Below the pieces are notes generated by a model. It worked only from the letters and a program-made list of their open reading frames with translations, had not been told where the DNA came from and did no database searches. DNA of 64,000 nt, from NCBI GenBank assembly GCA_964403725.1, contig CAYOHI010000005.1, positions 3,368-67,367 on the forward strand. Direction: 5' to 3'. Source of the stretch: an uncultured Candidatus Saccharibacteria bacterium. GTDB taxonomy: Bacteria; Patescibacteriota; Minisyncoccia; Portnoybacterales; UBA2143. Below, in pieces: positions 17,126 to 60,290 of the stretch; position 1 is the stretch's first letter, and each line of letters starts with the position of its first letter. A program made the translations under genes and the position numbers.

Positions 17126-19600
17126 TTATTTAAAATCTCTCATTTGAACAATCATTTTCATAACAAATTTCTTAGCAGGTTCTACTCTATTTACGTCCGT
17201 TATGTCGTAAAGCTCATTAACTCTCTTAATTAATTCTAGTTTCTTTTTAATAATCCATTGACTTTCAGGAACTCTATTAGAATAGTATTCTACAAAATCA
17301 CTTGGTTTGATTTGACGATTAATTAGAAGATCCATTACTTTTTTAGGACTTTCATTGAATGTTTTCTCTATTATCCCTTGGACAGGATCAATACTTTCAT
17401 TTTGAACCTCTGGAGATTCTGGGAGTATAGTATCTTTCCAAAATGCATCTCTTTCATCCCACCATTCATCTGGGATTGGCTGAACCCTTGTTTTTGAAAC
17501 CTCTTCTGGAACGTCAAATTTTTCACTTATTTCTATATCATCATACCCAGCAACACTTTCTTCTAACCCTTTGGCATGGACAACTTTTTCCCAAGTTTCC
17601 AGCTTAATATTATTAACATACCTCAAGGCGCCTTTTTTCAGAGCCCCTTCATCCCAAAGCTCATCAGCATGACTATCTAATGTTTTTAAAACTTCATTAA
17701 ATTTAACATGGTCTTTAATTTCTAAAGTATTCTTTTTAGGATTCCAATTCACAGCCTCTGAAAGTTCACTGGCTTTAATTCCAATTGTATCCTTGCCTGA
17801 TAATATTCTAATTAAATTCTGTGAAATATTCAGGCTTTTAGCAGCATGTTTTTCAGTAAAATTACCAGCAGCATCTACAGGATTTTCCATGTTATTTATG
17901 GCAATCATTTGGAGAGTTCTTTCTAAATATTTAGGAGCTCCTTGTTTTCCTAATTCTAATGTAAAGTTTTCTTTAAGGCCTCTTTTACTTGATACTTCCT
18001 CTATATGCTCTCTTATTCTAGGTAATGATTCTTTTAGGCGGCTGATCATACGTTCTTTCATATTTCTAAGATTTTCTAAATGTTCTGAATCTATAGGCTT
18101 CCCTTCTGATCTCATCTTTAATAAACTGTTTATTTCCGAATCCACACGATTGTATTCTCTTTCAAGGTTTGCTAATCCAGATCCAAGATCGTTTCTCATT
18201 TCTCCTAAAGGAACTTCTCTAAGTAAAGCAAAGGCATTTCTAATTGTTTCTCTTTGTTCTGATGATTTTACTTCCCATTGCTCTTCATTTATCCTTAATC
18301 TTTCTCCTGCTTCCTTCATACCCTGCAAAAGTTCTTTAGTTCTATTAGATCCTTCATGTACAGGAGAAGTAATATCTTTTGAAGTAAAATACTGATCAGT
18401 AAATTCTCTTATGGCATAACCTGCTGTGGCAAAGCCAGCAGATATGAGGGCGCCTTTTACTGTTTCGCTAAGTAAATACTTCCCTTGTGATTTTTCTTTT
18501 TCTTTCTCTTTTTCTTCGGCAATTGATTTGAGTCTTCTCTCCTCGAATGGAATGATAATATCATCTTCATTTATTCTGACAAATCCTTTACTAAGAGTTT
18601 GCATTAAATCGTACTGTCTAGATATTCTCTCTTCGCTTTCGCCAAAATCAATTAGACCTCTTTCTAATTTATCCGTAAGCCAATCTGTACTCATTCGGAG
18701 TGATTTTTTATAGGCGAATAATTGTCCCGGAGTGAATTCTTTGCCCTGTTTTGTCTTGCCTTCTTCTAATTTTTGGATTGTTTTCTTGATCTTATTACTT
18801 ACCTTTTCAGCTTCTGAATATTTGCTAATTACTCCTTCTCTAATTGCTGATGCCTGCTCTTTTTCTAGGTCTTTTATTTTCTTCTTCTTTTCATTTATTT
18901 TAGATTTATCTAACCCTCCCTTCTCTATTTCAGCATTCAAGACTTTTATTCTATGGTTCCTTTTCCAGTATTCATCAACTTCATCCATTTTATCTCCTTT
19001 GCGAGACATTTTTTCTTTTTCTACGAGTGATTCTTTAGCTCTTTTCCTGGAAATGAAACCACCTAGACCTGCTGCTGCTAAAGGTAAACCAGCAAAACCA
19101 ATCATACTCATTGTCAAAGACCTGGCTGCAAAACCAGCTGCCATATACATTCCTCTTTCTGTAGCTATGTCTTTCATGGCATGAAGCCAGGCTTTTTTGT
19201 TTTCAGCATTAATTAATTGTTTTTCAACTTCAGGGTGAGTGTTTAAAAATTGATTTAAAGTAATCTTGTTTTCAATCTCACTTAAATCAAGCATTGCTTC
19301 TTTTCTGCCCAGCTCTGCTTCTTTGAGGTTTAATAGGTCTTTTTTGGTATTTTCAAATTTTTCCTTTGCTTTCTCATATTTCTTTCTCTCTTTGCTAGTG
19401 GCTGTAGAATATGACCATTCTTTAGGTATTCGGCTGAATTCAGTAGCAATCCTATTAAATGATTCGACTGTTTCTTTTTGTTCTGGATTTCCAGCAGTAG
19501 CATACTGTATTTCTAGCTTGCCATCTATGACTTCTACTTCTGGGCCAAATTCACTCATTCCTTTAGTTAATTGTTTTAAAATATCTCCATGTACTTCCAT
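17126..19600 (-). CDS. large (824 aa) Lys/Glu-rich coiled-coil protein with two hydrophobic segments, hypothetical
   Basis: Long ORF; hydrophobic MYMAAGFAARSLTMSMIGFAGLPLAAAGLGGFI and ALISAGFATAGYAI segments; no recognisable enzymatic motif. Confidence 0.55.
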   Translation of the reverse strand: MEVHGDILKQLTKGMSEFGPEVEVIDGKLEIQYATAGNPEQKETVESFNRIATEFSRIPKEWSYSTATSKERKKYEKAKEKFENTKKDLLNLKEAELGRKEAMLDLSEIENKITLNQFLNTHPEVEKQLINAENKKAWLHAMKDIATERGMYMAAGFAARSLTMSMIGFAGLPLAAAGLGGFISRKRAKESLVEKEKMSRKGDKMDEVDEYWKRNHRIKVLNAEIEKGGLDKSKINEKKKKIKDLEKEQASAIREGVISKYSEAEKVSNKIKKTIQKLEEGKTKQGKEFTPGQLFAYKKSLRMSTDWLTDKLERGLIDFGESEERISRQYDLMQTLSKGFVRINEDDIIIPFEERRLKSIAEEKEKEKEKSQGKYLLSETVKGALISAGFATAGYAIREFTDQYFTSKDITSPVHEGSNRTKELLQGMKEAGERLRINEEQWEVKSSEQRETIRNAFALLREVPLGEMRNDLGSGLANLEREYNRVDSEINSLLKMRSEGKPIDSEHLENLRNMKERMISRLKESLPRIREHIEEVSSKRGLKENFTLELGKQGAPKYLERTLQMIAINNMENPVDAAGNFTEKHAAKSLNISQNLIRILSGKDTIGIKASELSEAVNWNPKKNTLEIKDHVKFNEVLKTLDSHADELWDEGALKKGALRYVNNIKLETWEKVVHAKGLEESVAGYDDIEISEKFDVPEEVSKTRVQPIPDEWWDERDAFWKDTILPESPEVQNESIDPVQGIIEKTFNESPKKVMDLLINRQIKPSDFVEYYSNRVPESQWIIKKKLELIKRVNELYDITDVNRVEPAKKFVMKMIVQMRDFK

Positions 19601-19661
19601 TCCTCCTTCTTTAATTTCATTAGCTGTTTTCTTTTCTAATTTGACAATTTGATATTTTTTG

Positions 19662-21407
19662 CTAATACTGCGCCAAAATCTGCCTAGTAATTTTTGGTTT
19701 TTGGTTTTTGAGGTCTTCTTTATATTCCTTAACTGATTCTTCTTGGATTCTGCCTAAGATTAATTGTTTTAAGTTTTCTAAGACAAGTGATTTTTGACCT
19801 TCTGATAGATTATTGAAACCTTCAATATTTTCTAAATCGTTTTCGGAAATCCCAAACTCAGAAAAATCACCAGGTTTTTCTTTTGCAGATTTAGATGACT
19901 GTGGTTCTGATTCTGGCCCAGATTTAGACTCCGTAGGATTTTCTTCATTCTCTTCTTCCTGTTTTGGTTCACCTCTTCTTTCAGCTTCAGCTTCCTCTTC
20001 CTCGAATATATCGTTATATGCCCTTAATACTTCTTTTGGAAATTTGCTACGTAATCCTCTATTTATTTCCATTAACTTTCTTGCTTTTTCTTTTTCATCC
20101 ATCTCTCGATCATTAAGTATCTCATCTCGCTCCTTAAGCAATCTTTCTAATTCTTCTTTTTCCTCTTCGCTTAAATTTATTTCTGGCTCTGGTTCTTTTT
20201 CTGTTTTAGATTCTGCAGATTCTTCTTGCTGCTCTGGTTCATCTTGTCTTCCTATAAAGGATTCCATTTGACCACCTACTCTTTCATCCCTTTCTTGTTG
20301 AGTTGCATATTTCTTTAATTCTTCGCCCAGTTCTTCGGATTTATCCCTTGGCGGGGTCTCTCTTTCTATGAAAGATTCCATGAGCTTTCCTTTTTTAGTT
20401 TCTGGATTTACATATTCTGGTTCTTTGTATTCCTCTTTTCCTTGTTGAGTTTCGTTTCCTTCTGATGTTTTACTTAGTTGCCTCGCCTCCCACTCTTTTT
20501 TAGCTTTTTTATAGAAAAATTCTTCATTTCTATACTGATCAGTATTCTCTAATCCTCTTTCTTCCATTCGCTTCATAGCAGCTTTATGATTGATCATATT
20601 TTCTAAATCTTTGTTTCCGAATACCTCTTCAGATGTTAATCCTTCTTCCTGCATTGCTTTGTAGATGTATTTTGCACGACCTTCTTTTTTTGGCTCGGGT
20701 TCTTTGGGTTCAGGTTCAGGGGTTGGTTTCTCTTCAGGATTATCTGATGCAGATTCCAAAAGATCATCTACTTCTTTTTGCGAGGTTAAATCTTCTTCAG
20801 GAGTTGGTTTTAGAGATTCCGGTTCCTCTTTTGGCTGTTCTGTTGCTTTGCCTTCTATTCTATTAAAAACTTGGTCTACATTATCTCTCGCTTGCTCTAT
20901 TTTTTCTTCTTTGCCTGGTTCGACGATATCATCGTCAGTTAATTCGATAATATCATTATCTTGCTCTATTGATTCTACTCCTCTTTCTTGTTCTGTTTTT
21001 TCCTTATTTTCTGGATTAACAACATCAGTTAATTCAATTATATCATCGTCGTCTGCTTGTTCCTGTTTTACTTTCATTCTTTCCTTGGCTTCTTTGGCAT
21101 GAGCTATTCTTTCTTTCTTTTCTTTTTCTGTTGCTTTTTGTTTTTGTATTTCTCTCCTTCTTTCTTTTACTTTTCTCATGACGTTTTCATCAGCTTCTTT
21201 AGCTGATTTTACTATCTTTGGTCCTTTTTCAGTATCAGGATCATCTACAACATCAGTTAATTCAATTATTTCCTCTTGTTCTGCTGGTTTAGCAGCTTCT
21301 TGTTTTCCTTGATCGCTAAAAATACTAGCCATTGATTCACTGGCTCCTTCTAAAAGCTCTTCTTCAGTGATCGTTTCTGGTTTGTTTGTATTGGGTTTCT
21401 CTATCAT
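19662..21407 (-). CDS. highly acidic repeat protein (three IIELTDVV/IIELTDDD repeats), hypothetical
   Basis: 581 aa ORF; repeat units EEIIELTDVVDDPDTEKG / DDIIELTDVVNPENKEK / DNDIIELTDDDIVEPGKEEK; C-terminal PKxEP repeats. Confidence 0.55.
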   Translation of the reverse strand: MIEKPNTNKPETITEEELLEGASESMASIFSDQGKQEAAKPAEQEEIIELTDVVDDPDTEKGPKIVKSAKEADENVMRKVKERRREIQKQKATEKEKKERIAHAKEAKERMKVKQEQADDDDIIELTDVVNPENKEKTEQERGVESIEQDNDIIELTDDDIVEPGKEEKIEQARDNVDQVFNRIEGKATEQPKEEPESLKPTPEEDLTSQKEVDDLLESASDNPEEKPTPEPEPKEPEPKKEGRAKYIYKAMQEEGLTSEEVFGNKDLENMINHKAAMKRMEERGLENTDQYRNEEFFYKKAKKEWEARQLSKTSEGNETQQGKEEYKEPEYVNPETKKGKLMESFIERETPPRDKSEELGEELKKYATQQERDERVGGQMESFIGRQDEPEQQEESAESKTEKEPEPEINLSEEEKEELERLLKERDEILNDREMDEKEKARKLMEINRGLRSKFPKEVLRAYNDIFEEEEAEAERRGEPKQEEENEENPTESKSGPESEPQSSKSAKEKPGDFSEFGISENDLENIEGFNNLSEGQKSLVLENLKQLILGRIQEESVKEYKEDLKNQKPKITRQILAQY

Positions 21408-34479: not shown

Positions 34480-34746
34480 TTACATTCCAGAACCATCTGC
34501 CGGCTTATTTTCCTCAGCAACTGGAGCCTCAGGCTCAACTGCCGGAGCTTCAGGTGCAGCTGGGGCTTCTGGGGCAGCTGGCGTTTCCGGAGAGACCGGA
34601 GCTTCAGGCATTTCGGGAGCAGCTGGAGCAACTGGAGTTTCTGGCATATCAGCAGCAACTGATGAACCGCTATCTTTTTTTCCAGACATCATCCAGAAAG
34701 CTAAGCCTCCGATGACTACTACAGCGATAATGATTATCCACCACAT
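34480..34746 (-). CDS. small membrane-anchored Pro/Ala/Glu repeat protein
   Basis: MWWIIIIAVVVIGGLAFWMM followed by (A/P)PE(A/M)P repeats. Confidence 0.45.
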   Translation of the reverse strand: MWWIIIIAVVVIGGLAFWMMSGKKDSGSSVAADMPETPVAPAAPEMPEAPVSPETPAAPEAPAAPEAPAVEPEAPVAEENKPADGSGM

Positions 34747-34843: not shown

Positions 34844-35557
34844 CTAAATTTTAGATCTGATGACTAAATATGGGAATTTAATGACCGCGTTATACATCCT
34901 TTTCACCCGCCAAGGCTGGCAGATCAGTCGCCAAAGCCATTCCAGTCCAATTTTTCTTACTGATTTGGGCGCTCTTTTGACTTTTCCTGAAATGAAATCA
35001 AAAGAGCCGCCTACTCCCATAGCCAGTCTGACTGAAGGAAGCTTGCTCAAATTATTTCTAATCCATTTTTCCTGCTTGGGAGCCCCTAGGGCTACGAAAA
35101 GAATCTCTGGCTGGCCTGAAACTTCTTCATGGCCTGATGAGATCTTTAAATCCGGATATTTTTCTTTCAATTTTTCAGCTGCTTTGTCTGAAATTCCCAT
35201 CTCAGCACCCATTAAAAAAACTGACCATTCTTTTTGGGCAGCTTGCTTGCAGATCTTATCCATCAGATCGACTCCCTGGATTCTTTCCTTTATCGGTTCT
35301 CTTAAGAATATTGAGGCATAAGTGAGACCGACTCCGTCAGGCACGCAAATATCGGCAGAGTTAAGGATTCTCTTAAAATCCTCATCTTTCTGGGCTTTGA
35401 CTAAGAATTCCGGATTAGGCGTGGTCAGATAGTGCTGGTCGCTGCTCTTTAAAAAGCCATTCACTTTCTCAAGGATTTCTCTTTTATTTAAATTATCGAT
35501 TTTTACATCTAATATCTTCATTCTTTCTTGTTTATAAAATAAAACTCCGCGGGGCAC
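34844..35557 (-). CDS. WecB/TagA/CpsF-family (GT26) glycosyltransferase (probable start at the internal Met, 35521)
   Basis: TTPNPEF, ICVPDGVG, ILFVALGAPKQEKW, MGVGGSFDFISGKVKRAP, GLEWLWRLICQPWRVKR - all signature blocks of GT26. Confidence 0.8.
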   Translation of the reverse strand: MPRGVLFYKQERMKILDVKIDNLNKREILEKVNGFLKSSDQHYLTTPNPEFLVKAQKDEDFKRILNSADICVPDGVGLTYASIFLREPIKERIQGVDLMDKICKQAAQKEWSVFLMGAEMGISDKAAEKLKEKYPDLKISSGHEEVSGQPEILFVALGAPKQEKWIRNNLSKLPSVRLAMGVGGSFDFISGKVKRAPKSVRKIGLEWLWRLICQPWRVKRMYNAVIKFPYLVIRSKI

Positions 35558-35575
35558 GAAGCGACGCGGAGGGAG
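35543..35575 (-). terminator. GC-rich hairpin terminator downstream of the toxin gene
   Basis: ctccgcg...cgcggag stem; on the minus strand followed by ttttatttt. Confidence 0.5.
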
Positions 35576-35616
35576 TTAACCACTAAAGCATATCAAAATA
35601 TAAGTCGCTTGGCAAG

Positions 35617-36009
35617 CTATTTTATTTTTTTCCACTCTCTAACAATAGTTGCCATCAAATAAGCATCATTAGTTCCATAAAGAATACATTTGAGTACTTT
35701 AAAAGATTTCTTAATATCTATTCTATCAAGTTTTCCTAGAGGCTGTTTATTGCTTAGGTCATGTATAGAATTCGTATCTCTACGATTAAAACAAATATAA
35801 CTATCTTTACTAAAGCACCGATATTTATCCTTAGATAGAACCACGGAAAATTGAAAAGTTTTCTTAGAGGTAATCACAGAACACAATAGATTATGTTCAT
35901 AATTCATAATCGCTGGAGGTAGCAAAACCAGAGCAAAGTGTGGAGCTGATTTATTTGTATCAGTAAAAAAATATTTCTTAAAATGCAAAATGTTAGCAAT
36001 ATTATACAT
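35617..36009 (-). CDS. putative toxin partnered with the Panacea antitoxin (PanT-like; no confident family, weak MazF/PemK-like pattern)
   Basis: 130 aa; ATG is 2 nt after the stop of the upstream Panacea gene; basic; HFALVLLP ... ITSK ... LGKLDRIDIKKSFKVLKCIL loosely fits the PemK topology. Confidence 0.5.
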   Translation of the reverse strand: MYNIANILHFKKYFFTDTNKSAPHFALVLLPPAIMNYEHNLLCSVITSKKTFQFSVVLSKDKYRCFSKDSYICFNRRDTNSIHDLSNKQPLGKLDRIDIKKSFKVLKCILYGTNDAYLMATIVREWKKIK

Positions 36010-36011
36010 TT

Positions 36012-36542
36012 TTAGCCAGCAACCAAATCAACTATATCTTCATCTAAAGGAATTAAACTAAAATCTAGTTGATGTCCTTTTAAAACACCTCTTTTGCCTT
36101 TCTTCTCTTCTTTTTGTATATCTTTCATCGGCTCAGTATCATAAGCTATCTTTTTAAGATTAGTAATTGTTAGATACATATATGATTCAAGAATACTATT
36201 AATGAACAGTTTTTCTGATTCCTCAAGATTAAAATTCTTAATATTCTTTTTCAAAGAAATACAATGCCTAGCATAGGGATAATTTTGCTTTTTAACTTCT
36301 TTTATTTCTATGAATTTATTTTCTAAATCAGATAATGCATTATAAATATCGATAGATATTGGCCCATTTTTATCTCGGACAAAAGAGACATTAGAATCGA
36401 AAAAAGTCTTACCAGTAAATTTATAAGACTCAACCTCCAATAAGTAAAGCAGCTTGAACAGCTCAATCTTGGAAAGATTATCTTTCTCTTTTTGCTTTGC
36501 TCTAGTTAATAAGTATAAAATTATACTCTCTATCCTAGTCAT
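36012..36542 (-). CDS. Panacea-domain (DUF4065, SocA/PanA-like) antitoxin
   Basis: IESIILYLLTRAKQKEKDNLSKIELFKLLYLLEVESYKFTGKTFFDSNVSFVRDKNGPISIDIYNAL matches the DUF4065 core (L.KLKLqKLLY... F.AW..GPV...Y). Confidence 0.7.
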   Translation of the reverse strand: MTRIESIILYLLTRAKQKEKDNLSKIELFKLLYLLEVESYKFTGKTFFDSNVSFVRDKNGPISIDIYNALSDLENKFIEIKEVKKQNYPYARHCISLKKNIKNFNLEESEKLFINSILESYMYLTITNLKKIAYDTEPMKDIQKEEKKGKRGVLKGHQLDFSLIPLDEDIVDLVAG

Positions 36543-36595
36543 AAACTAAACTTTTATACGGATATTATAACAAAAAAAATAGAAATAGGCAACAA

Positions 36596-37162
36596 CTACA
36601 TTCCCAGTTCAATTGATTCTAAAACGGAATATTCAGCCCCACCTCTTGATAAGCGGCTTTCCATAACCTTGATTTCCTCAACAGGTATGATAAAGGAAAC
36701 TTCTTTTTTAATCTTTGGCTGTTCTGCTAATTCTTTCCATTCGCTCTGCTTGATTCTAGCTAAGGTAATATGGGGATTAAAAGCCTTTTCTATCTTACTA
36801 TTAAAGCCGCTGCCGCTTGAATTGAGCAGAGTGCCTTCTAGATTGCCTCTTAATCTGGCAAGTTCATCGCTTTTTTCGCCTGCCAGCCAGATCATCCTGG
36901 GCGGCCGTCCTGGCGGACCGAAAAGAATTTGCTTGAATTTAATTTCAAAAGGATTATGTTCTCCTCCGACTTGTTTTGCCAGATTGCAAACTTCCAGCAT
37001 TTCATCATCGCTAACATAGCCGATGAAGACCAGGGTAATATGGAGATTATTCTTCCTGATCCAGCGCACTGGCAAATCAAACCATTTTTCCTGGAATGAT
37101 ACTAGTTTCTTCTTAACCTTATCAGGCAGGTCTATGGCAATAAAGAGGCGTCTTCTGTTCAT
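36596..37162 (-). CDS. thpR: RNA 2',3'-cyclic phosphodiesterase (2H phosphoesterase, LigT/ThpR)
   Basis: Two H-x-T-x motifs (NLHITLVFIG and NPHITLARI); start taken at the internal Met (MNRRRLFIAIDLP); the ORF track extends to 37222. Confidence 0.75.
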   Translation of the reverse strand: MNRRRLFIAIDLPDKVKKKLVSFQEKWFDLPVRWIRKNNLHITLVFIGYVSDDEMLEVCNLAKQVGGEHNPFEIKFKQILFGPPGRPPRMIWLAGEKSDELARLRGNLEGTLLNSSGSGFNSKIEKAFNPHITLARIKQSEWKELAEQPKIKKEVSFIIPVEEIKVMESRLSRGGAEYSVLESIELGM

Positions 37163-37204
37163 ACTTGAAGTATAGCAGAAGGGATGTATAATGGAAATAG
37201 AGAT

Positions 37205-37642
37205 ATGCCAAAGAAAAAACAAACAAAAAAAGAAACGGATATCCAGAAAGTAGTCAATTACTACTTCAAGACCAAAGGCCTGGACATCACTGAATTAAAG
37301 CGTGATATTAAAAAGAAAAAAATTGTCTATTCCCGCTACGTTCGCCCAGCCAAGCAGCTATTGGAACTGGCTGGATCCCTGCGCGAGGCAAAAAAAGCCA
37401 TCACTAAGGTATCCAAATGGGCCAAATCAAGGAATCTGGACTATGCTATTGAAACCGTCTTTAAAAAATGGTTAGAATTAGACAAGCTTAAGCCGAAAGA
37501 AGTCGTCAAGAAGCCGTTTTTCAGAGGAGACCATATGGTCTGGTCTCAAAGCAGAAAGAAATGGTTTGTCATTACTGAGGATGATGAATGGAAGGAATTT
37601 GCCGGCAAGGAAGAGGACATTGAATGGAAGGTGGTGAAATAG
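37205..37642 (+). CDS. hypothetical basic protein
   Basis: ORF 37184-37642; start probably MPKKKQ at 37205; divergent from thpR. Confidence 0.4.
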   Translation: MPKKKQTKKETDIQKVVNYYFKTKGLDITELKRDIKKKKIVYSRYVRPAKQLLELAGSLREAKKAITKVSKWAKSRNLDYAIETVFKKWLELDKLKPKEVVKKPFFRGDHMVWSQSRKKWFVITEDDEWKEFAGKEEDIEWKVVK

Positions 37643-55748: not shown

Positions 55749-56044
55749 ACAAAGATTCTCTAAACCTCTAAGGCTTACTTTAAGCCACAGGGGTTTATAA
55801 AGACCTCCGGAAGGGTTGAGAGCTGTACTCTCAATAAGCTAAAGGTTGAACCTATAACCCTTTGTCCTCCTGGATTCTTTACTCGTTTCAGGATGATTGT
55901 TAATGTTTTATTTATTTGTTTTCGACCTTTATCTTTTCCATTTATTGTTTTAATTATACTCTATTTCTATGTTCTTTAGAAGTGGATAACTAGAATATAA
56001 AATTGATGAAATCTTTGCCAGTATAACTATCCCTAACTAAACTA

Positions 56045-56072
56045 TTGACAAAATTTTTTAATTTGTTATACT
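56045..56072 (+). promoter_or_regulatory. sigma70-like promoter (TTGACA-16-TATACT) with no downstream plus-strand ORF
   Basis: Consensus -35 and near-consensus -10 hexamers visible in sequence. Confidence 0.35.
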
Positions 56073-56079
56073 TTTAATA

Positions 56080-56162
56080 TAAATCTCCGGCCGGAGCGTA
56101 ACTCCATTTTATGGTCTTCTTATGACCAGGAGCCAACCTCCCACTTGGCGGGAGGTTTTTTA
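56080..56162 (+). ncRNA. candidate ~80-nt small RNA (promoter to intrinsic terminator, three hairpins)
   Basis: Bounded by promoter 56045-56072 and terminator 56137-56162; hairpins CUCCGG/CCGGAG, GGUC-uucuuau-GACC, CCUCCC-acuuggc-GGGAGG followed by UUUUUU; no ORF >4 codons. Confidence 0.3.
56137..56162 (+). terminator. plus-oriented intrinsic terminator
   Basis: cctccc-acttggc-gggagg followed by ttttttat; on the minus strand the hairpin is not followed by a T-tract. Confidence 0.7.
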
Positions 56163-56570
56163 TTCAAGAGGGAAACAAGACATGAAATATTTTCTTTTAC
56201 TTCTTTTATTCTCTTTTATTTGAACATAAAACAGCTCTCTATCTTTAGTAAGGCCCAAGAATCTGTATAAGATTTCTGTTTTCTTATTTCTATTGACCTC
56301 AATAGATGGCTTATTGCGAGAATTCTTCATTAATTCAATCGCACAATTGAAATATCTCAACCTTATAATTCTTTCCCTGTGTCTTTTTTGATGCAAATGA
56401 ATCCAAAAATAGTTGAAAAATATTTTTTGTTTTCCAAAATAAGCAGAACGGATATAAGGATTCCTCTTGGTTCTTTTCTTAATACGGTTAAATATGACTA
56501 AGGCATTTTTTCTTACTTCCTTGTAACTCGTTCCTGGTATTTTCTTTTTATTAGTTTGATATGGAATCAT
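56160..56570 (-). CDS. small highly basic protein, hypothetical
   Basis: 136 aa ORF, pI clearly basic (KR-rich); no motif recognised. Confidence 0.4.
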   Translation of the reverse strand: MIPYQTNKKKIPGTSYKEVRKNALVIFNRIKKRTKRNPYIRSAYFGKQKIFFNYFWIHLHQKRHRERIIRLRYFNCAIELMKNSRNKPSIEVNRNKKTEILYRFLGLTKDRELFYVQIKENKRSKRKYFMSCFPLE

Positions 56571-56631
56571 AAAATCATTTTGGCATACTGATAATAATCT
56601 TAAATAACGTTTCGATTTTTAACAAGATTTT

Positions 56632-57639
56632 TTACCTTAATAATTGTGTAACTAAAGCAATCATCTGTTCTTTTTCTTTAGGGTTGCTTTCAGCTATTAA
56701 GAGAGCTAAAGCAGTTAAGGTGTTGTCATTAATTTTCTTTTCCCCGTTTAATCTATGCAAAAAATCATTCTTATCTAAGAAATAGACGAATAAAAATGAT
56801 CCAATTCTTTTATTTCCATCAGAAAAAGGATGATCTTTAATTGTTAAATACAAAAGATTAGCTGCTTTTTCTTCTATACTTTTGTATAATTCTTTCTTAT
56901 TGAATGTCTGGTAGATATTTTTGACAACACCCTCAAACTTGTGATTAATTTCATTTCCAAATATATCCCCTGCTTCTTTCTTATCAATTAATTTCTTTTT
57001 TAACTCAACTATTATCTCTAAGCAATCTTGATATTCTAAAACAAATTTTGATTTGCTCTTCTTAATCTGTTTGATTTTATTCTTATCATATTGCTCTAAT
57101 AGAGTTAGAGTTTTGGAGTAATCGGATAATAAATCTAAAATTCCTTTTTCTTGACCTTTTAATAGTTTCTTTTGAGATTTCTTTTTTAGAAAAGAAATAG
57201 TATTTTGTAATTTATTGAATTGCTTTTCTGTTTCTAGTAGTCTTTCTCGATTTATTACATAACCCCTTAAAAGATAATTTTTGAGAGTTTTGGTTGCCCA
57301 GATTCTGAATTGAGTAGCTTTTTTTGAATTAACCCGATAGCCTACTGAGATGATCGCATCTAAATTATAAAATTTAGTTTTGTAGGTTTTATTATCAGCA
57401 GCAGTATGTTCCAAAATGGAACTAACTGAATTTTCATTTAGTTCTTTACTTTTGAATATATTATTTAAATGCTTGGTTATAGCTGGACGCTGCGTACCGA
57501 AAAGCAGAGATATTTGTCCTTGTGTAAGCCAAATACTTTCTTTATTAAATTTAACTTTTAACTCAACGTCACCACCCTTTGGCTGATAAATAATAATTTC
57601 TCCATTATTCAATTGTCTTTTGTTTAAAGTCATATTCAA
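56632..57639 (-). CDS. RhuM-family N-terminal domain fused to Fic/Doc domain (canonical HPFSDGNKR)
   Basis: N-terminal IIIYQPKGGDVELKVKFNKESIWLTQGQISLLFGTQRPAITKHLNNIF...FYNLDAIISVGYRVNSKKATQFRIWATKTLKNYL matches Virulence_RhuM; C-terminal DHPFSDGNKRIGSFLFVYFL is a Doc/Fic motif. Confidence 0.8.
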   Translation of the reverse strand: MNMTLNKRQLNNGEIIIYQPKGGDVELKVKFNKESIWLTQGQISLLFGTQRPAITKHLNNIFKSKELNENSVSSILEHTAADNKTYKTKFYNLDAIISVGYRVNSKKATQFRIWATKTLKNYLLRGYVINRERLLETEKQFNKLQNTISFLKKKSQKKLLKGQEKGILDLLSDYSKTLTLLEQYDKNKIKQIKKSKSKFVLEYQDCLEIIVELKKKLIDKKEAGDIFGNEINHKFEGVVKNIYQTFNKKELYKSIEEKAANLLYLTIKDHPFSDGNKRIGSFLFVYFLDKNDFLHRLNGEKKINDNTLTALALLIAESNPKEKEQMIALVTQLLR

Positions 57640-58691
57640 ACCAAAAAATAACTATCAATAGAAAATTTAAACTGTTCAACGAATAATTCCTTAAAATTCC
57701 TCAAGCTGTTCTGCTCATAGAAAACAATTAAGGCTTTCTTGTATTCAGCTTCATCAACGCTTCTAAAAGAAAGAGGACAAATGTCACTAGCCATCAATAA
57801 GGCATTGCCTAATAGACGAGCTGTCCTTTTGTTCCCATCTACAAACGGCTGGATATATGAAATAAAGACGACAGCAAAAAATGATTTTGAAAAAGGATCG
57901 GATAATTCATTAATCATCTCAACGAACTTATCCATCGCCTCCCTGATTTGATGCTGATTATCCAAAGGCAGATATTCAGTTCCGATTATCCTAACTGGAT
58001 TCTTGCGCAATCCTTTTTCTATGCCTAGCCTATCAACAATTAAATCATGAATTCTTTCGATCTTTGGAATGGAAATCTTTTTGAAGTCATTTTTCTTTTC
58101 AGAGATATAGCCTAAGGCATTCTTATGATTTAAAATCATAATCGCCTCTTCTTTTTTGTGTCCAATAGCCTCCTTATTCTCCTTAATCAATACTTCTGTA
58201 TCTATTAGCGAATATGTATTGCCCTCAATTTTTGATGATTTCCAGCTTAATTCAATAGTTAATCTTTCAAATTCCTTCTTTAGAATATCATTGGGCATCT
58301 TTTTAATCCTGCTCTTATATTCTCTATTAAGCTCATTTAGTTCCTCTAATTCCTGGTTATCGAAAACACTTTCAATATCTTTGAAAATATTAAAATTAAA
58401 GGATTTGAACTTTAATTTCCTCTGTTCGGCTTCTTTTTGGAAATATTTGTCAATGTCAATGTATTGTAGAAAATCGTTTTTAACCTTTTCTTCATAGTAA
58501 ACGCTCCTCCCCTTTCCTTTCTTATCAATTAATCCATCCTTTAGGAGAAAATTCAGATCACGAACAACAGTAATCCGAGAAGTATTTCTCAAGTACTCCT
58601 TGATTTCCTGATTACTAACTTTATTTGATCTTTTAATAAATTCCAGAATCTTCAGTTGTCTGTCATTTAATTTAGTCATTAATTGTATCAT
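57636..58691 (-). CDS. Fic-family protein paralog with N-terminal wHTH and Q-variant Fic motif (QPFVDGNKR); true start possibly Met at 58679
   Basis: Highly similar to the 41898-42956 protein (e.g. KKEFERLTIELSWKSS.IEGNTYSLIDTE.LIKENKEA.GH.KEEA.MILNHK); 4-nt ATGA overlap with the downstream RhuM-Doc gene. Confidence 0.75.
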   Translation of the reverse strand: MIQLMTKLNDRQLKILEFIKRSNKVSNQEIKEYLRNTSRITVVRDLNFLLKDGLIDKKGKGRSVYYEEKVKNDFLQYIDIDKYFQKEAEQRKLKFKSFNFNIFKDIESVFDNQELEELNELNREYKSRIKKMPNDILKKEFERLTIELSWKSSKIEGNTYSLIDTEVLIKENKEAIGHKKEEAIMILNHKNALGYISEKKNDFKKISIPKIERIHDLIVDRLGIEKGLRKNPVRIIGTEYLPLDNQHQIREAMDKFVEMINELSDPFSKSFFAVVFISYIQPFVDGNKRTARLLGNALLMASDICPLSFRSVDEAEYKKALIVFYEQNSLRNFKELFVEQFKFSIDSYFLV

Positions 58692-58740
58692 TTAATACGT
58701 CTTAATTGTATCATAATTAGTTAAAAAATGAAACAATTAA
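58679..58740. repeat. TTAATTGTATCA x2 plus an inverted ACAATTAA copy at the 5' end of the Fic paralog; same 8-bp core as at 42992-43030
   Basis: Directly visible. Confidence 0.5.
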
Positions 58741-58752
58741 AAGACTGATTCC

Positions 58753-59142
58753 CTATTCATTTTTTCTGTATTGTTTCAAATAAGATCTAATTCTGTCTCT
58801 GTTCTCATTCTGTTTCTTACCCTTGAAATATACTTCAATAAATTCAATGCCAATCACATCTATAGTCTCATGATCTTCTGCATAGGCATAAATAATTCTC
58901 AAGCTCTTTTTCTTTAAGCTTCTACAAAAGAATCTGGCTTTGACAATATACACAGATTCAGATTTTGTAATAACATTAAAATGCTTGCCAATCCCTAAAG
59001 GAGATGCTCTTAAAACTTTCTTGAATTCATTTAAATCATCTTTGAGTGATCTGAATTTCTTGAATAGCTTTTTAAAATCTCTTTTAAACTCTTGAGTTTC
59101 TTTAAAGTTCATCTTCATAGTTCCTGATTGAATGATCGTCAT
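58753..59142 (-). CDS. RelE/ParE-superfamily-like toxin (YafQ/HigB-like pattern)
   Basis: FKRDFKKL...YIVKARFFCRSLKKKSLRIIYAYAEDHETIDVIGIEFIEVYFKG fits the RelE/ParE fold signature (K.R...RIIY...I.H..Y); overlaps the upstream HTH-Panacea gene. Confidence 0.5.
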   Translation of the reverse strand: MTIIQSGTMKMNFKETQEFKRDFKKLFKKFRSLKDDLNEFKKVLRASPLGIGKHFNVITKSESVYIVKARFFCRSLKKKSLRIIYAYAEDHETIDVIGIEFIEVYFKGKKQNENRDRIRSYLKQYRKNE

Positions 59143-59875
59143 CGCGATAGAAAACAGTCTCGTAACTTATCTCTTCACCCATCTCATGAACTCGCCAAGG
59201 AGTATCTGAATGGGAATAATCACTCAATTCAGCAGCGTTCTTCCAAGCCAAACGTATCAAAACATCATCAATGTGCTTAATTTCTTGGGCTGACAGGATG
59301 TTTAAGTCAGCTGATCTTCTTGGCAAGTATTTTTTCTGCTCATGCTGGAAGTACTTGCTTTTAATCTTCTCAATTTCACCTTTCCTTATCATTTGATCAA
59401 CTATCTTTTTGAATTCAATCGGTGTTGGGCCGAAATGGTTCTTAATATACTTGGCGCCGATCAGCTGCTCTTCAAATTTTTCATAATAGTCAAAATCTGT
59501 AAAATACAATAATTTGTAAAGTGCTGTTTCGCCAATATTGGGCCTGGCGCCAACTTTTTCTAGAATATATAGGAATACTTCTTTAAATTTCTTAACATTT
59601 GCTCGGGACATAATAATTCTCATTTCAGGCTTATTTGTCTTCTTAGTTTTCTTTTCCTCTTTCAGGTTAACTTTAATTTCCTTTTTCCCTCCACTTAACA
59701 AATCCTTTAACGACATACTAAAAATGGAGGCTAATTTCTGTGCTTCTGGAATAGTTAATTCTCGCTTTCCTTTTTCAACTTGGATATATGTCGGTCTGGA
59801 GATACCAAGTTGATCAGCTAGATACTGTTGAGAATAATTATTTTTCTTTCTTAATTTTTGGATGAATAAAGTCAT
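59102..59875 (-). CDS. XRE-family HTH fused to Panacea (DUF4065) domain - PanA-type antitoxin
   Basis: N-terminal LRKKNNYSQQYLADQLGISRPTYIQVEKGKRELTIPEAQKLASIF (HTH_XRE); C-terminal ETALYKLLYFTDFDYYEKFEEQLIGAKYIKNHFGPTPIEF (DUF4065 core). Confidence 0.7.
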   Translation of the reverse strand: MTLFIQKLRKKNNYSQQYLADQLGISRPTYIQVEKGKRELTIPEAQKLASIFSMSLKDLLSGGKKEIKVNLKEEKKTKKTNKPEMRIIMSRANVKKFKEVFLYILEKVGARPNIGETALYKLLYFTDFDYYEKFEEQLIGAKYIKNHFGPTPIEFKKIVDQMIRKGEIEKIKSKYFQHEQKKYLPRRSADLNILSAQEIKHIDDVLIRLAWKNAAELSDYSHSDTPWRVHEMGEEISYETVFYRDDDHSIRNYEDEL

Positions 59876-59981
59876 GATTTAATTCTATCAATTGTAAAAT
59901 ATATTGTCAAGTGGATAAGTAAATATATTTTACATATTGACAGTATATTTATAATACCTTGTTATGATATAATATTAATAC

Positions 59982-60290
59982 ATGAAAACTAAGCAAACAG
60001 ATAAATTGCCTTCTTTTTTCAAGCCAATTCTTTGGTCTTATGATTTTAATTCCATTAATTTAGAAAAGAATAAGAAAGCTATTATTATCAACTCAATAAA
60101 CTACGGCGATTTGAAGCATTGGCGCTGGATCGTCAAACACTACGGGAAAAAAGAGGTTAAAAAAATATTAACAACTATCCCCTTTACTGAAATTAGACCC
60201 AGGGTTGTCCCTTTAGTTTCTCTGTTATTCTCCATCGATGAATTCAATTATATACCTAGAGGCGTTTCTCAAAAAAAAGCTAATAGATAA
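59982..60290 (+). CDS. hypothetical protein
   Basis: 102 aa ORF with an upstream AT-rich promoter-like region. Confidence 0.4.
   Translation: MKTKQTDKLPSFFKPILWSYDFNSINLEKNKKAIIINSINYGDLKHWRWIVKHYGKKEVKKILTTIPFTEIRPRVVPLVSLLFSIDEFNYIPRGVSQKKANR

Follow-up and report, generated by a model that had tools for sequence, protein, structure and literature searches.

What kind of toxin accompanies a small Panacea-domain gene in the genome of an uncultured Candidatus Saccharibacteria bacterium? The stretch of DNA analyzed here (assembly GCA_964403725.1, contig CAYOHI010000005.1, positions 3,368 to 67,367; hereafter the window, 64,000 nucleotides in length) carries two adjacent genes that an earlier note had read as an antitoxin (PanA) followed by a toxin (PanT) of no nameable family, and hence as a candidate new class of PanT. 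Our analysis points to a different answer: it is quite likely that the cassette is a PanAT module with a MazF-fold toxin and, with somewhat less assurance, we favor the idea that this toxin uses the specific ribonuclease (RNase) chemistry of MazF. The cassette consists of the following features:

36564 to 36592, minus strand: sigma-70-type promoter with an extended -10 element (TTGCCT, a 17-nt spacer and TATAAT, with TG upstream, i.e., TG-n-TATAAT).
36012 to 36542, minus strand: panA, coding for a 176-aa stand-alone Panacea-domain antitoxin that matches PF13274.
35617 to 36009, minus strand: panT, coding for a 130-aa basic protein with a predicted MazF/PemK fold.
35536 to 35571, minus strand: intrinsic terminator, a 7-bp GC-rich stem (CUCCGCG/CGCGGAG) with two inner pairs, followed by UUUUAUUUU.
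About 35600 to 36560, no strand assigned: low-GC insert that holds the cassette, marked by its GC contrast with the flanking genes.

The anatomy described in the earlier note was thus confirmed: both open reading frames (ORFs) lie on the minus strand at the positions that it gave, the TAA stop of panA is separated by two nucleotides (aa) from the ATG of panT, the product of the latter is indeed basic (isoelectric point 9.67; 22 K+R vs 10 D+E), and a GC-rich hairpin follows the pair.

The assignment of the first gene is straightforward. The PF13274 profile (SocA_Panacea, formerly DUF4065) matches residues 28-137 of PanA with E=4.1e-11 and 44.2 bits vs a gathering score of 25.7, covering profile positions 1-110 of 113, so that the Panacea core recognized in the earlier note is borne out by a search with hidden Markov models (HMMs). 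Panacea is the only domain that Pfam recognizes in this protein; as no extra N-terminal domain is present, PanA belongs to the stand-alone class. The same domain was found in all of its homologues (41/41 clusters, mostly 174-200 aa, with a few truncated or longer), and PanA also matches PHROG families. The AlphaFold2 model has a mean predicted local distance difference test score of 92.8 and a predicted TM-score of 0.89, and is confident in its C-terminal segment as well; the last 21 residues (156-176) are acidic (5 D+E, 0 K+R) and embed the sequence LDEDVVDLIA, conserved in the family alignment. Among solved structures the model best matches the toxin-binding C-terminal domain of DarG, in the DarG chain of the Mycobacterium tuberculosis DarTG complex 7yk3 (E=7.4e-4, prob 1.00), followed by winged-helix proteins of the PadR/Pex type. 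The likeness to DarTG extends to weak PADLOC and NCBIfam DarG matches over the same region (for the NCBIfam model NF048014, 17.9 bits vs a cut-off of 250, in the C-terminal region only). However, PanA is a protein of 176 aa with a single Panacea domain and no macrodomain, and its partner is not a DarT ADP-ribosyltransferase.

The second gene is the one that raises the question. No above-threshold match to PanT was retrieved from Pfam, NCBIfam, PADLOC or PHROGs (from the last two, nothing at all), and its sole family trace is the NCBIfam MazF model (E=0.092, 12.7 bits vs a cut-off of 120), by virtue of which the remark of the earlier note on a faint MazF/PemK likeness was correct. The predicted structure of PanT shows the beta-barrel fold of MazF and Kid with a C-terminal helix. 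This is in agreement, if only weakly, with the Pfam scan of 48 PanT relatives taken singly, where PemK_toxin (PF02452) was by far the commonest sub-threshold family (11/48, best E=0.001), and with profile comparisons. Indeed, the hhalign alignment of the PanT family with a small MazF/Kid alignment gave E=3.6e-5 and a probability of 71.5% over 105 columns; the latter alignment joined to the B. subtilis sequence those of MazF from S. aureus and E. coli, Kid and ChpBK, and while B. subtilis MazF was confirmed at 100% identity, these four and CcdB are provisional sequences. A homologue search started from B. subtilis MazF added no diversity to it, the best 120 matches all being EndoA at 94-100% identity. 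When single sequences were aligned, the match to B. subtilis-type MazF spanned 55 columns (E=0.0029), against 10 columns (E=0.16) for CcdB; PanT is closer to MazF than to CcdB in both structure and sequence, CcdB having the lower structural score and none by profile. On this predicted fold, PanT is a very divergent MazF/PemK-fold protein, and its relatives, which amount to some 38 clusters (50% identity) in a set of 1.84 billion representatives, appear to form a small, rare and separate sequence family overlooked by the current family libraries. Accordingly, the earlier statement that the partner belongs to no nameable family stands insofar as no library recognizes it above threshold, and fails insofar as its fold and profiles have a name.

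The residues that are constrained in the family are those that matter in MazF. In both hhalign alignments, His24 of PanT aligns with Arg25 of B. subtilis MazF and Thr47 with Thr48. The two MazF residues (corresponding to Arg29 and Thr52 in the E. coli enzyme) are essential according to mutagenesis, the former being the proposed general acid/base and the latter a stabilizer of the transition state; natural Lys and Ser variants exist in M. tuberculosis MazF4 and MazF7, and their mutation impairs activity (PMC7354611). At alignment position 24, every one of the 48 relatives carries either His (38) or Arg (10), and at position 47 there is Thr in 43 and Ser in 2, a pattern which suggests, at the level of sequence conservation, that selection acts on the catalytic pair and not merely on the scaffold. 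In the MazF papers considered here we found no test of His at the position of the catalytic Arg.

The linkage of the two genes is also conserved. In each of five independent contigs with gene calls, the toxin homologue directly follows a Panacea gene of 176-177 aa, and the neighbors differ from one contig to the other (an IS200-type Y1 transposase; TPR/Wzy; rubrerythrin; ribosomal protein S15; a resolvase with an integrase). A scan of species-representative genomes added 11 further cassette loci, most of them from the candidate phyla radiation (CPR), i.e., Falkowbacteria, Portnoybacteria, Minisyncoccales and a "Patescibacteria group", with a few bins labelled as Gammaproteobacteria or Omnitrophota. 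Searches with HMMs of both proteins placed PanA immediately 5' of the toxin in 17/18 fetched loci, besides the window, in line with the conservation that the earlier note would expect, and the upstream gene is a Panacea protein at every intact locus. Between the stop of panA and the toxin ATG, the loci show anything from an overlap of 8 nt to a gap of 6 nt. The rule holds even for the two most distant toxin relatives considered, at 27% and 34% identity: a PanA of the same subfamily stands ahead of each, one of these PanAs being missed by Pfam and recovered by hhalign with a probability of 99.5%. The pairwise divergences of PanA and PanT correlate over 14 distinct pairs (r=0.90, Mantel p~2e-4). 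The TGnTATAAT element recurs 5' of panA at other loci; in the window, the promoter hexamers match the consensus at 10/12 positions and the TG is present, while no operator-like inverted or direct repeats were found at the promoter (inverted-repeat search with a seed of 6).

As for the distribution of the cassette, intact copies outside CPR were found in metagenome-assembled genomes (MAGs) labelled as uncultured Gammaproteobacteria (two bins) and Candidatus Omnitrophota (L010, L012 and L017), which could reflect mis-binning, mislabelled CPR contigs or transfer between phyla. In the last of these loci, the match between the toxin and the family profile stops at position 119, the C-terminus of this toxin being different. 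The idea of a reduced genome, put forward in the earlier note, is plausible, several named relatives coming from CPR/Patescibacteria MAGs, even though this support is indirect. The composition of the cassette is foreign to its surroundings: the panA-panT pair has a GC content of 28.3% (0.22-0.24 at third codon positions, GC3), vs about 41% (GC3 0.42-0.43) for the flanking LigT-family and WecG/TagA genes, so that the cassette looks like a small insert gained horizontally. Searches for the toxin family in IMG/VR viral contigs, GenBank phages and PLSDB plasmids retrieved no relatives, and thus lend no support to an origin from a phage or a plasmid.

The combination of a Panacea antitoxin with a MazF-like toxin is of an already known kind. 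Kurata et al. (2022, PNAS, PMC8832971) surveyed DUF4065 neighborhoods, named PanA and PanT, and reported PemK among the CDD-recognized partner domains of Panacea. Two of their toxins, from Pseudomonas moraviensis and Bifidobacterium ruminantium, escape detection by CDD but are EndoA/PemK/MazF-like by HHpred; both are toxic, are neutralized by the cognate PanA and inhibit protein synthesis (PMC8832971). In the part of their Dataset S1 considered here, the MazF-like clusters T5 and T6 are associated with "noNTD" PanAs in A|T order (PMC8832971). The cassette resembles these systems in having a stand-alone ("noNTD") Panacea gene first and a small toxin within a few nucleotides, and in the lack of CDD/Pfam hits of a toxin that structure-aware comparison finds to be MazF/EndoA/PemK-like. 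It is for these reasons, i.e., a toxin of divergent MazF/PemK fold in a pairing already reported, that the proposal of a new PanT class is not supported. The novelty lies in the sequence family itself, which occurs mainly in CPR-type MAGs, mostly has His where MazF has its catalytic Arg, and carries an additional helix at the C-terminus. In these traits it differs from the published MazF-like PanTs, from which it appears to be set apart as a family. As that part of Dataset S1 contains no names of CPR phyla (PMC8832971), the lineage was probably outside the Kurata survey. From MazEF, PemIK and Kis-Kid, on the other hand, the system differs in its antitoxin, which is a Panacea protein and not a MazE/PemI of the AbrB/SpoVT or ribbon-helix-helix type.

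A number of observations weigh against the interpretation of PanT as a MazF-like RNase. The PF02452 model does not match the PanT of the window at E<=1, which places it below the gathering score of that family, and when PanT and its two family profiles were run as HMM searches over the sequences of PDB chains, no MazF chain came up, all of the matches being due to chance (a UDP-glycosyltransferase, the C-terminal domain of the RNA polymerase alpha subunit and NCS-1). Given that the hhalign probability was only 71.5%, the homology of PanT to MazF rests mainly on the predicted structure. Moreover, the catalytic Arg of canonical MazF is His in most members of the PanT family; the beta1-beta2 loop has three residues fewer and is devoid of the G-S/H-E-Q motif of MazF, the family having in this region the invariant Y13 and D17 within Y-x-F-T-D; and the MazF stretch Q-x-R-T-x-D reads R-R-D. 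In addition, canonical MazF has no counterpart of the last helix of PanT (residues 116-129, with a near-invariant R-E-W-K), which lies outside the MazF-aligned region. Judging from the substituted Arg, the shortened loop and the R-R-D stretch, the chemistry or the target of PanT could differ from those of MazF. Lastly, the co-divergence of the two proteins is expected of any linked, co-inherited genes and is no proof of contact, and two of the loci are decayed: at L016 (2863-3392), the exception among the 18 loci, only the last 22 codons or so of panA are left and the toxin is broken into fragments of 86 and 34 aa, which fits a toxin that cannot be maintained without its antitoxin, even though it is a single case, and at L018 (1967-2364) a frameshift divides the toxin into two pieces that overlap, although PanA is intact.

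On the reading that we favor, in which the cassette is a self-contained type II PanAT module with a MazF-like toxin, a single promoter would give rise to a bicistronic panA-panT transcript stopping at the intrinsic terminator, and the 2-nt gap would allow the translation of panT to be coupled to that of panA. PanT would most likely be a ribosome-independent, sequence-specific endoribonuclease, probably dimeric like MazF, with Thr47 as the presumed stabilizer of the transition state; the part of general acid/base would fall to His24, which is Arg in one relative out of five; the ensuing RNA cleavage would block translation. By analogy with what is reported for stand-alone Panacea antitoxins, PanA would most likely neutralize PanT through direct protein-protein binding. 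Toxicity would follow from such a scheme, and a role in phage defense or in the stabilization of the cassette might also be envisaged.

Other explanations have to be weighed against this one. That the partner represents a truly new PanT class, unrelated to known toxin families, is what one would think from the silence of Pfam, NCBIfam, PADLOC, PHROGs and the PDB sequences, and from the small size and isolation of the family; yet this idea is contradicted by both the fold and the profile evidence, by which it is largely refuted, and we regard it as hardly credible. A less radical possibility is that PanT has a fold of the MazF/CcdB superfamily and is not an endoribonuclease, hitting another target (DNA gyrase, as CcdB does) or binding without catalysis. 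The His substitution, the loss of the loop and the conserved Trp near the C-terminus would fit with this, but CcdB is the weaker match structurally and is absent by profile, and the constrained residues of PanT are precisely the catalytic ones of MazF, so that such a scenario seems unlikely to us. A further question concerns the control of the toxin, which might follow a route other than type II: PanA might serve as an adaptor to ClpXP, as in the type VI system SocAB of Caulobacter, or Panacea might be an abortive-infection sensor that frees the toxin upon phage infection. SocA is the founding Panacea protein, after which PF13274 is named, and the weak matches of PanA to NCBIfam SocA (E=0.009) and PADLOC DarG (E=2.4e-5) reflect the common domain; PanA matches PHROG families, as noted, a sensor role of Panacea was proposed by Ernits et al. 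(PMC10440598), and the cassette at L007 adjoins recombinase and integrase genes. However, the SocA equivalog NF047745 gives 15.7 bits on PanA vs a cut-off of 190, the toxin is MazF-fold and not SocB-like, and nothing points to a ClpXP adaptor mechanism. Direct neutralization by the stand-alone Panacea domain itself is supported by AlphaFold models and mutagenesis (Ernits et al. 2023, PMC10440598), and PanA-PanT complexes have been reported (PMC8832971). The toxin family, moreover, has no relatives in the viral, phage and plasmid collections searched, and a role in defense is in any case compatible with type II neutralization. We therefore deem a non-type-II route very improbable.

It is also conceivable, though we hold it only tentatively and as the lesser prospect, that the family is a distinct MazF-fold lineage, mainly of CPR-type MAGs, altered in both chemistry and control. 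Its chemistry could have been changed by the catalytic His in place of Arg, by the shortening of the substrate-gating beta1-beta2 loop and by the added C-terminal helix, and the toxin could be blocked directly, either by the globular part of Panacea or by the acidic helix at its C-terminus. The re-use of the MazF fold for an activity other than that of an RNase is less likely than this.

Turning to the surroundings of the cassette, a gene for a phosphoesterase of the LigT/2',5'-RNA-ligase family (PF02834, E=7.9e-22) lies directly 5' of it, at 36596-37222 on the minus strand. Cleavage of the MazF type leaves 2',3'-cyclic phosphate ends, which makes the adjacency of a possible 2',3'-cyclic phosphodiesterase suggestive; nevertheless, the cassette has no LigT beside it in any other independent locus with examined neighbors, and its GC content identifies it as an insert, and on these grounds a functional link was rejected. 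The adjacency is probably a coincidence. Divergent from the LigT gene, a 152-aa lysine-rich ORF (37184-37642, plus strand) has no Pfam match. On the other side, the terminator (minimum free energy -20.3 kcal/mol over an 82-nt stretch, z=-2.61) sits ahead of the probable ATG (35521) of the downstream gene, coding for a WecG/TagA glycosyltransferase. The GTG start listed for this gene (35557) would overlap the hairpin, which makes translation from the ATG at 35521 (MKILDV...) more plausible; even on identical contigs, its length varies with the gene caller (237 aa vs 225 aa). Between WecG and an MreC-like gene, an 88-aa ORF (34480-34746, minus strand) codes for a product that begins with a hydrophobic segment and continues with a Pro/Ala/Glu-rich repeat of PEAP/PETP units.

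The window contains a second, unrelated Panacea module (58753-59875, minus strand), inside a stretch of about 30% GC (56000-60000). It is composed of a 257-aa protein with HTH_3 and Panacea domains (59102-59875, minus strand; PF13274 E=6.6e-17, HTH_3 E=5.3e-14) and of an overlapping 129-aa basic ORF (58753-59142, minus strand) with no Pfam or NCBIfam match, which by eye looks RelE/ParE-like. A kinship of this second partner with the MazF-like PanT family was considered and discarded (hhalign probability 0.9%), and the two PanAs of the window are no more than about 23% identical over 64 residues. Directly 3' of the module there are two adjacent Fic-domain proteins (56632-58691, minus strand), one with RhuM and Fic (335 aa) and the other with a DeoR-type helix-turn-helix domain and Fic (351 aa); together with a 136-aa ORF without any match (56160-56570), this pair looks like a low-GC islet of toxin/defense genes. 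Farther away, two large ORFs of 824 and 581 aa (17126-21407, minus strand) have no Pfam match at E<=0.001 and lie in a region with an unusually strong negative AT skew (-0.31 to -0.40).

What does the cassette tell us about these bacteria and these toxins? The understanding of PanAT or MazF systems is left unchanged, and the main value of the analysis lies in correcting a "new toxin class" into a "divergent MazF". A Pfam or NCBIfam model built from the family alignment would allow the annotation of these genes, and the natural alternation of His and Arg at a catalytic position of MazF poses a simple and testable question on structure and function. We found no structure of a Panacea domain neutralizing a MazF-type toxin described in the papers considered here; if the lineage were indeed altered in chemistry and control, PanT may recognize an uncommon RNA target or cut with an uncommon specificity, and the neutralization of a toxin of this type by Panacea would be illustrated by the pair. 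In any event, the known pairing of Panacea with MazF-like toxins now extends into CPR/Patescibacteria, ultra-small uncultured bacteria whose toxin-antitoxin content has been little studied.
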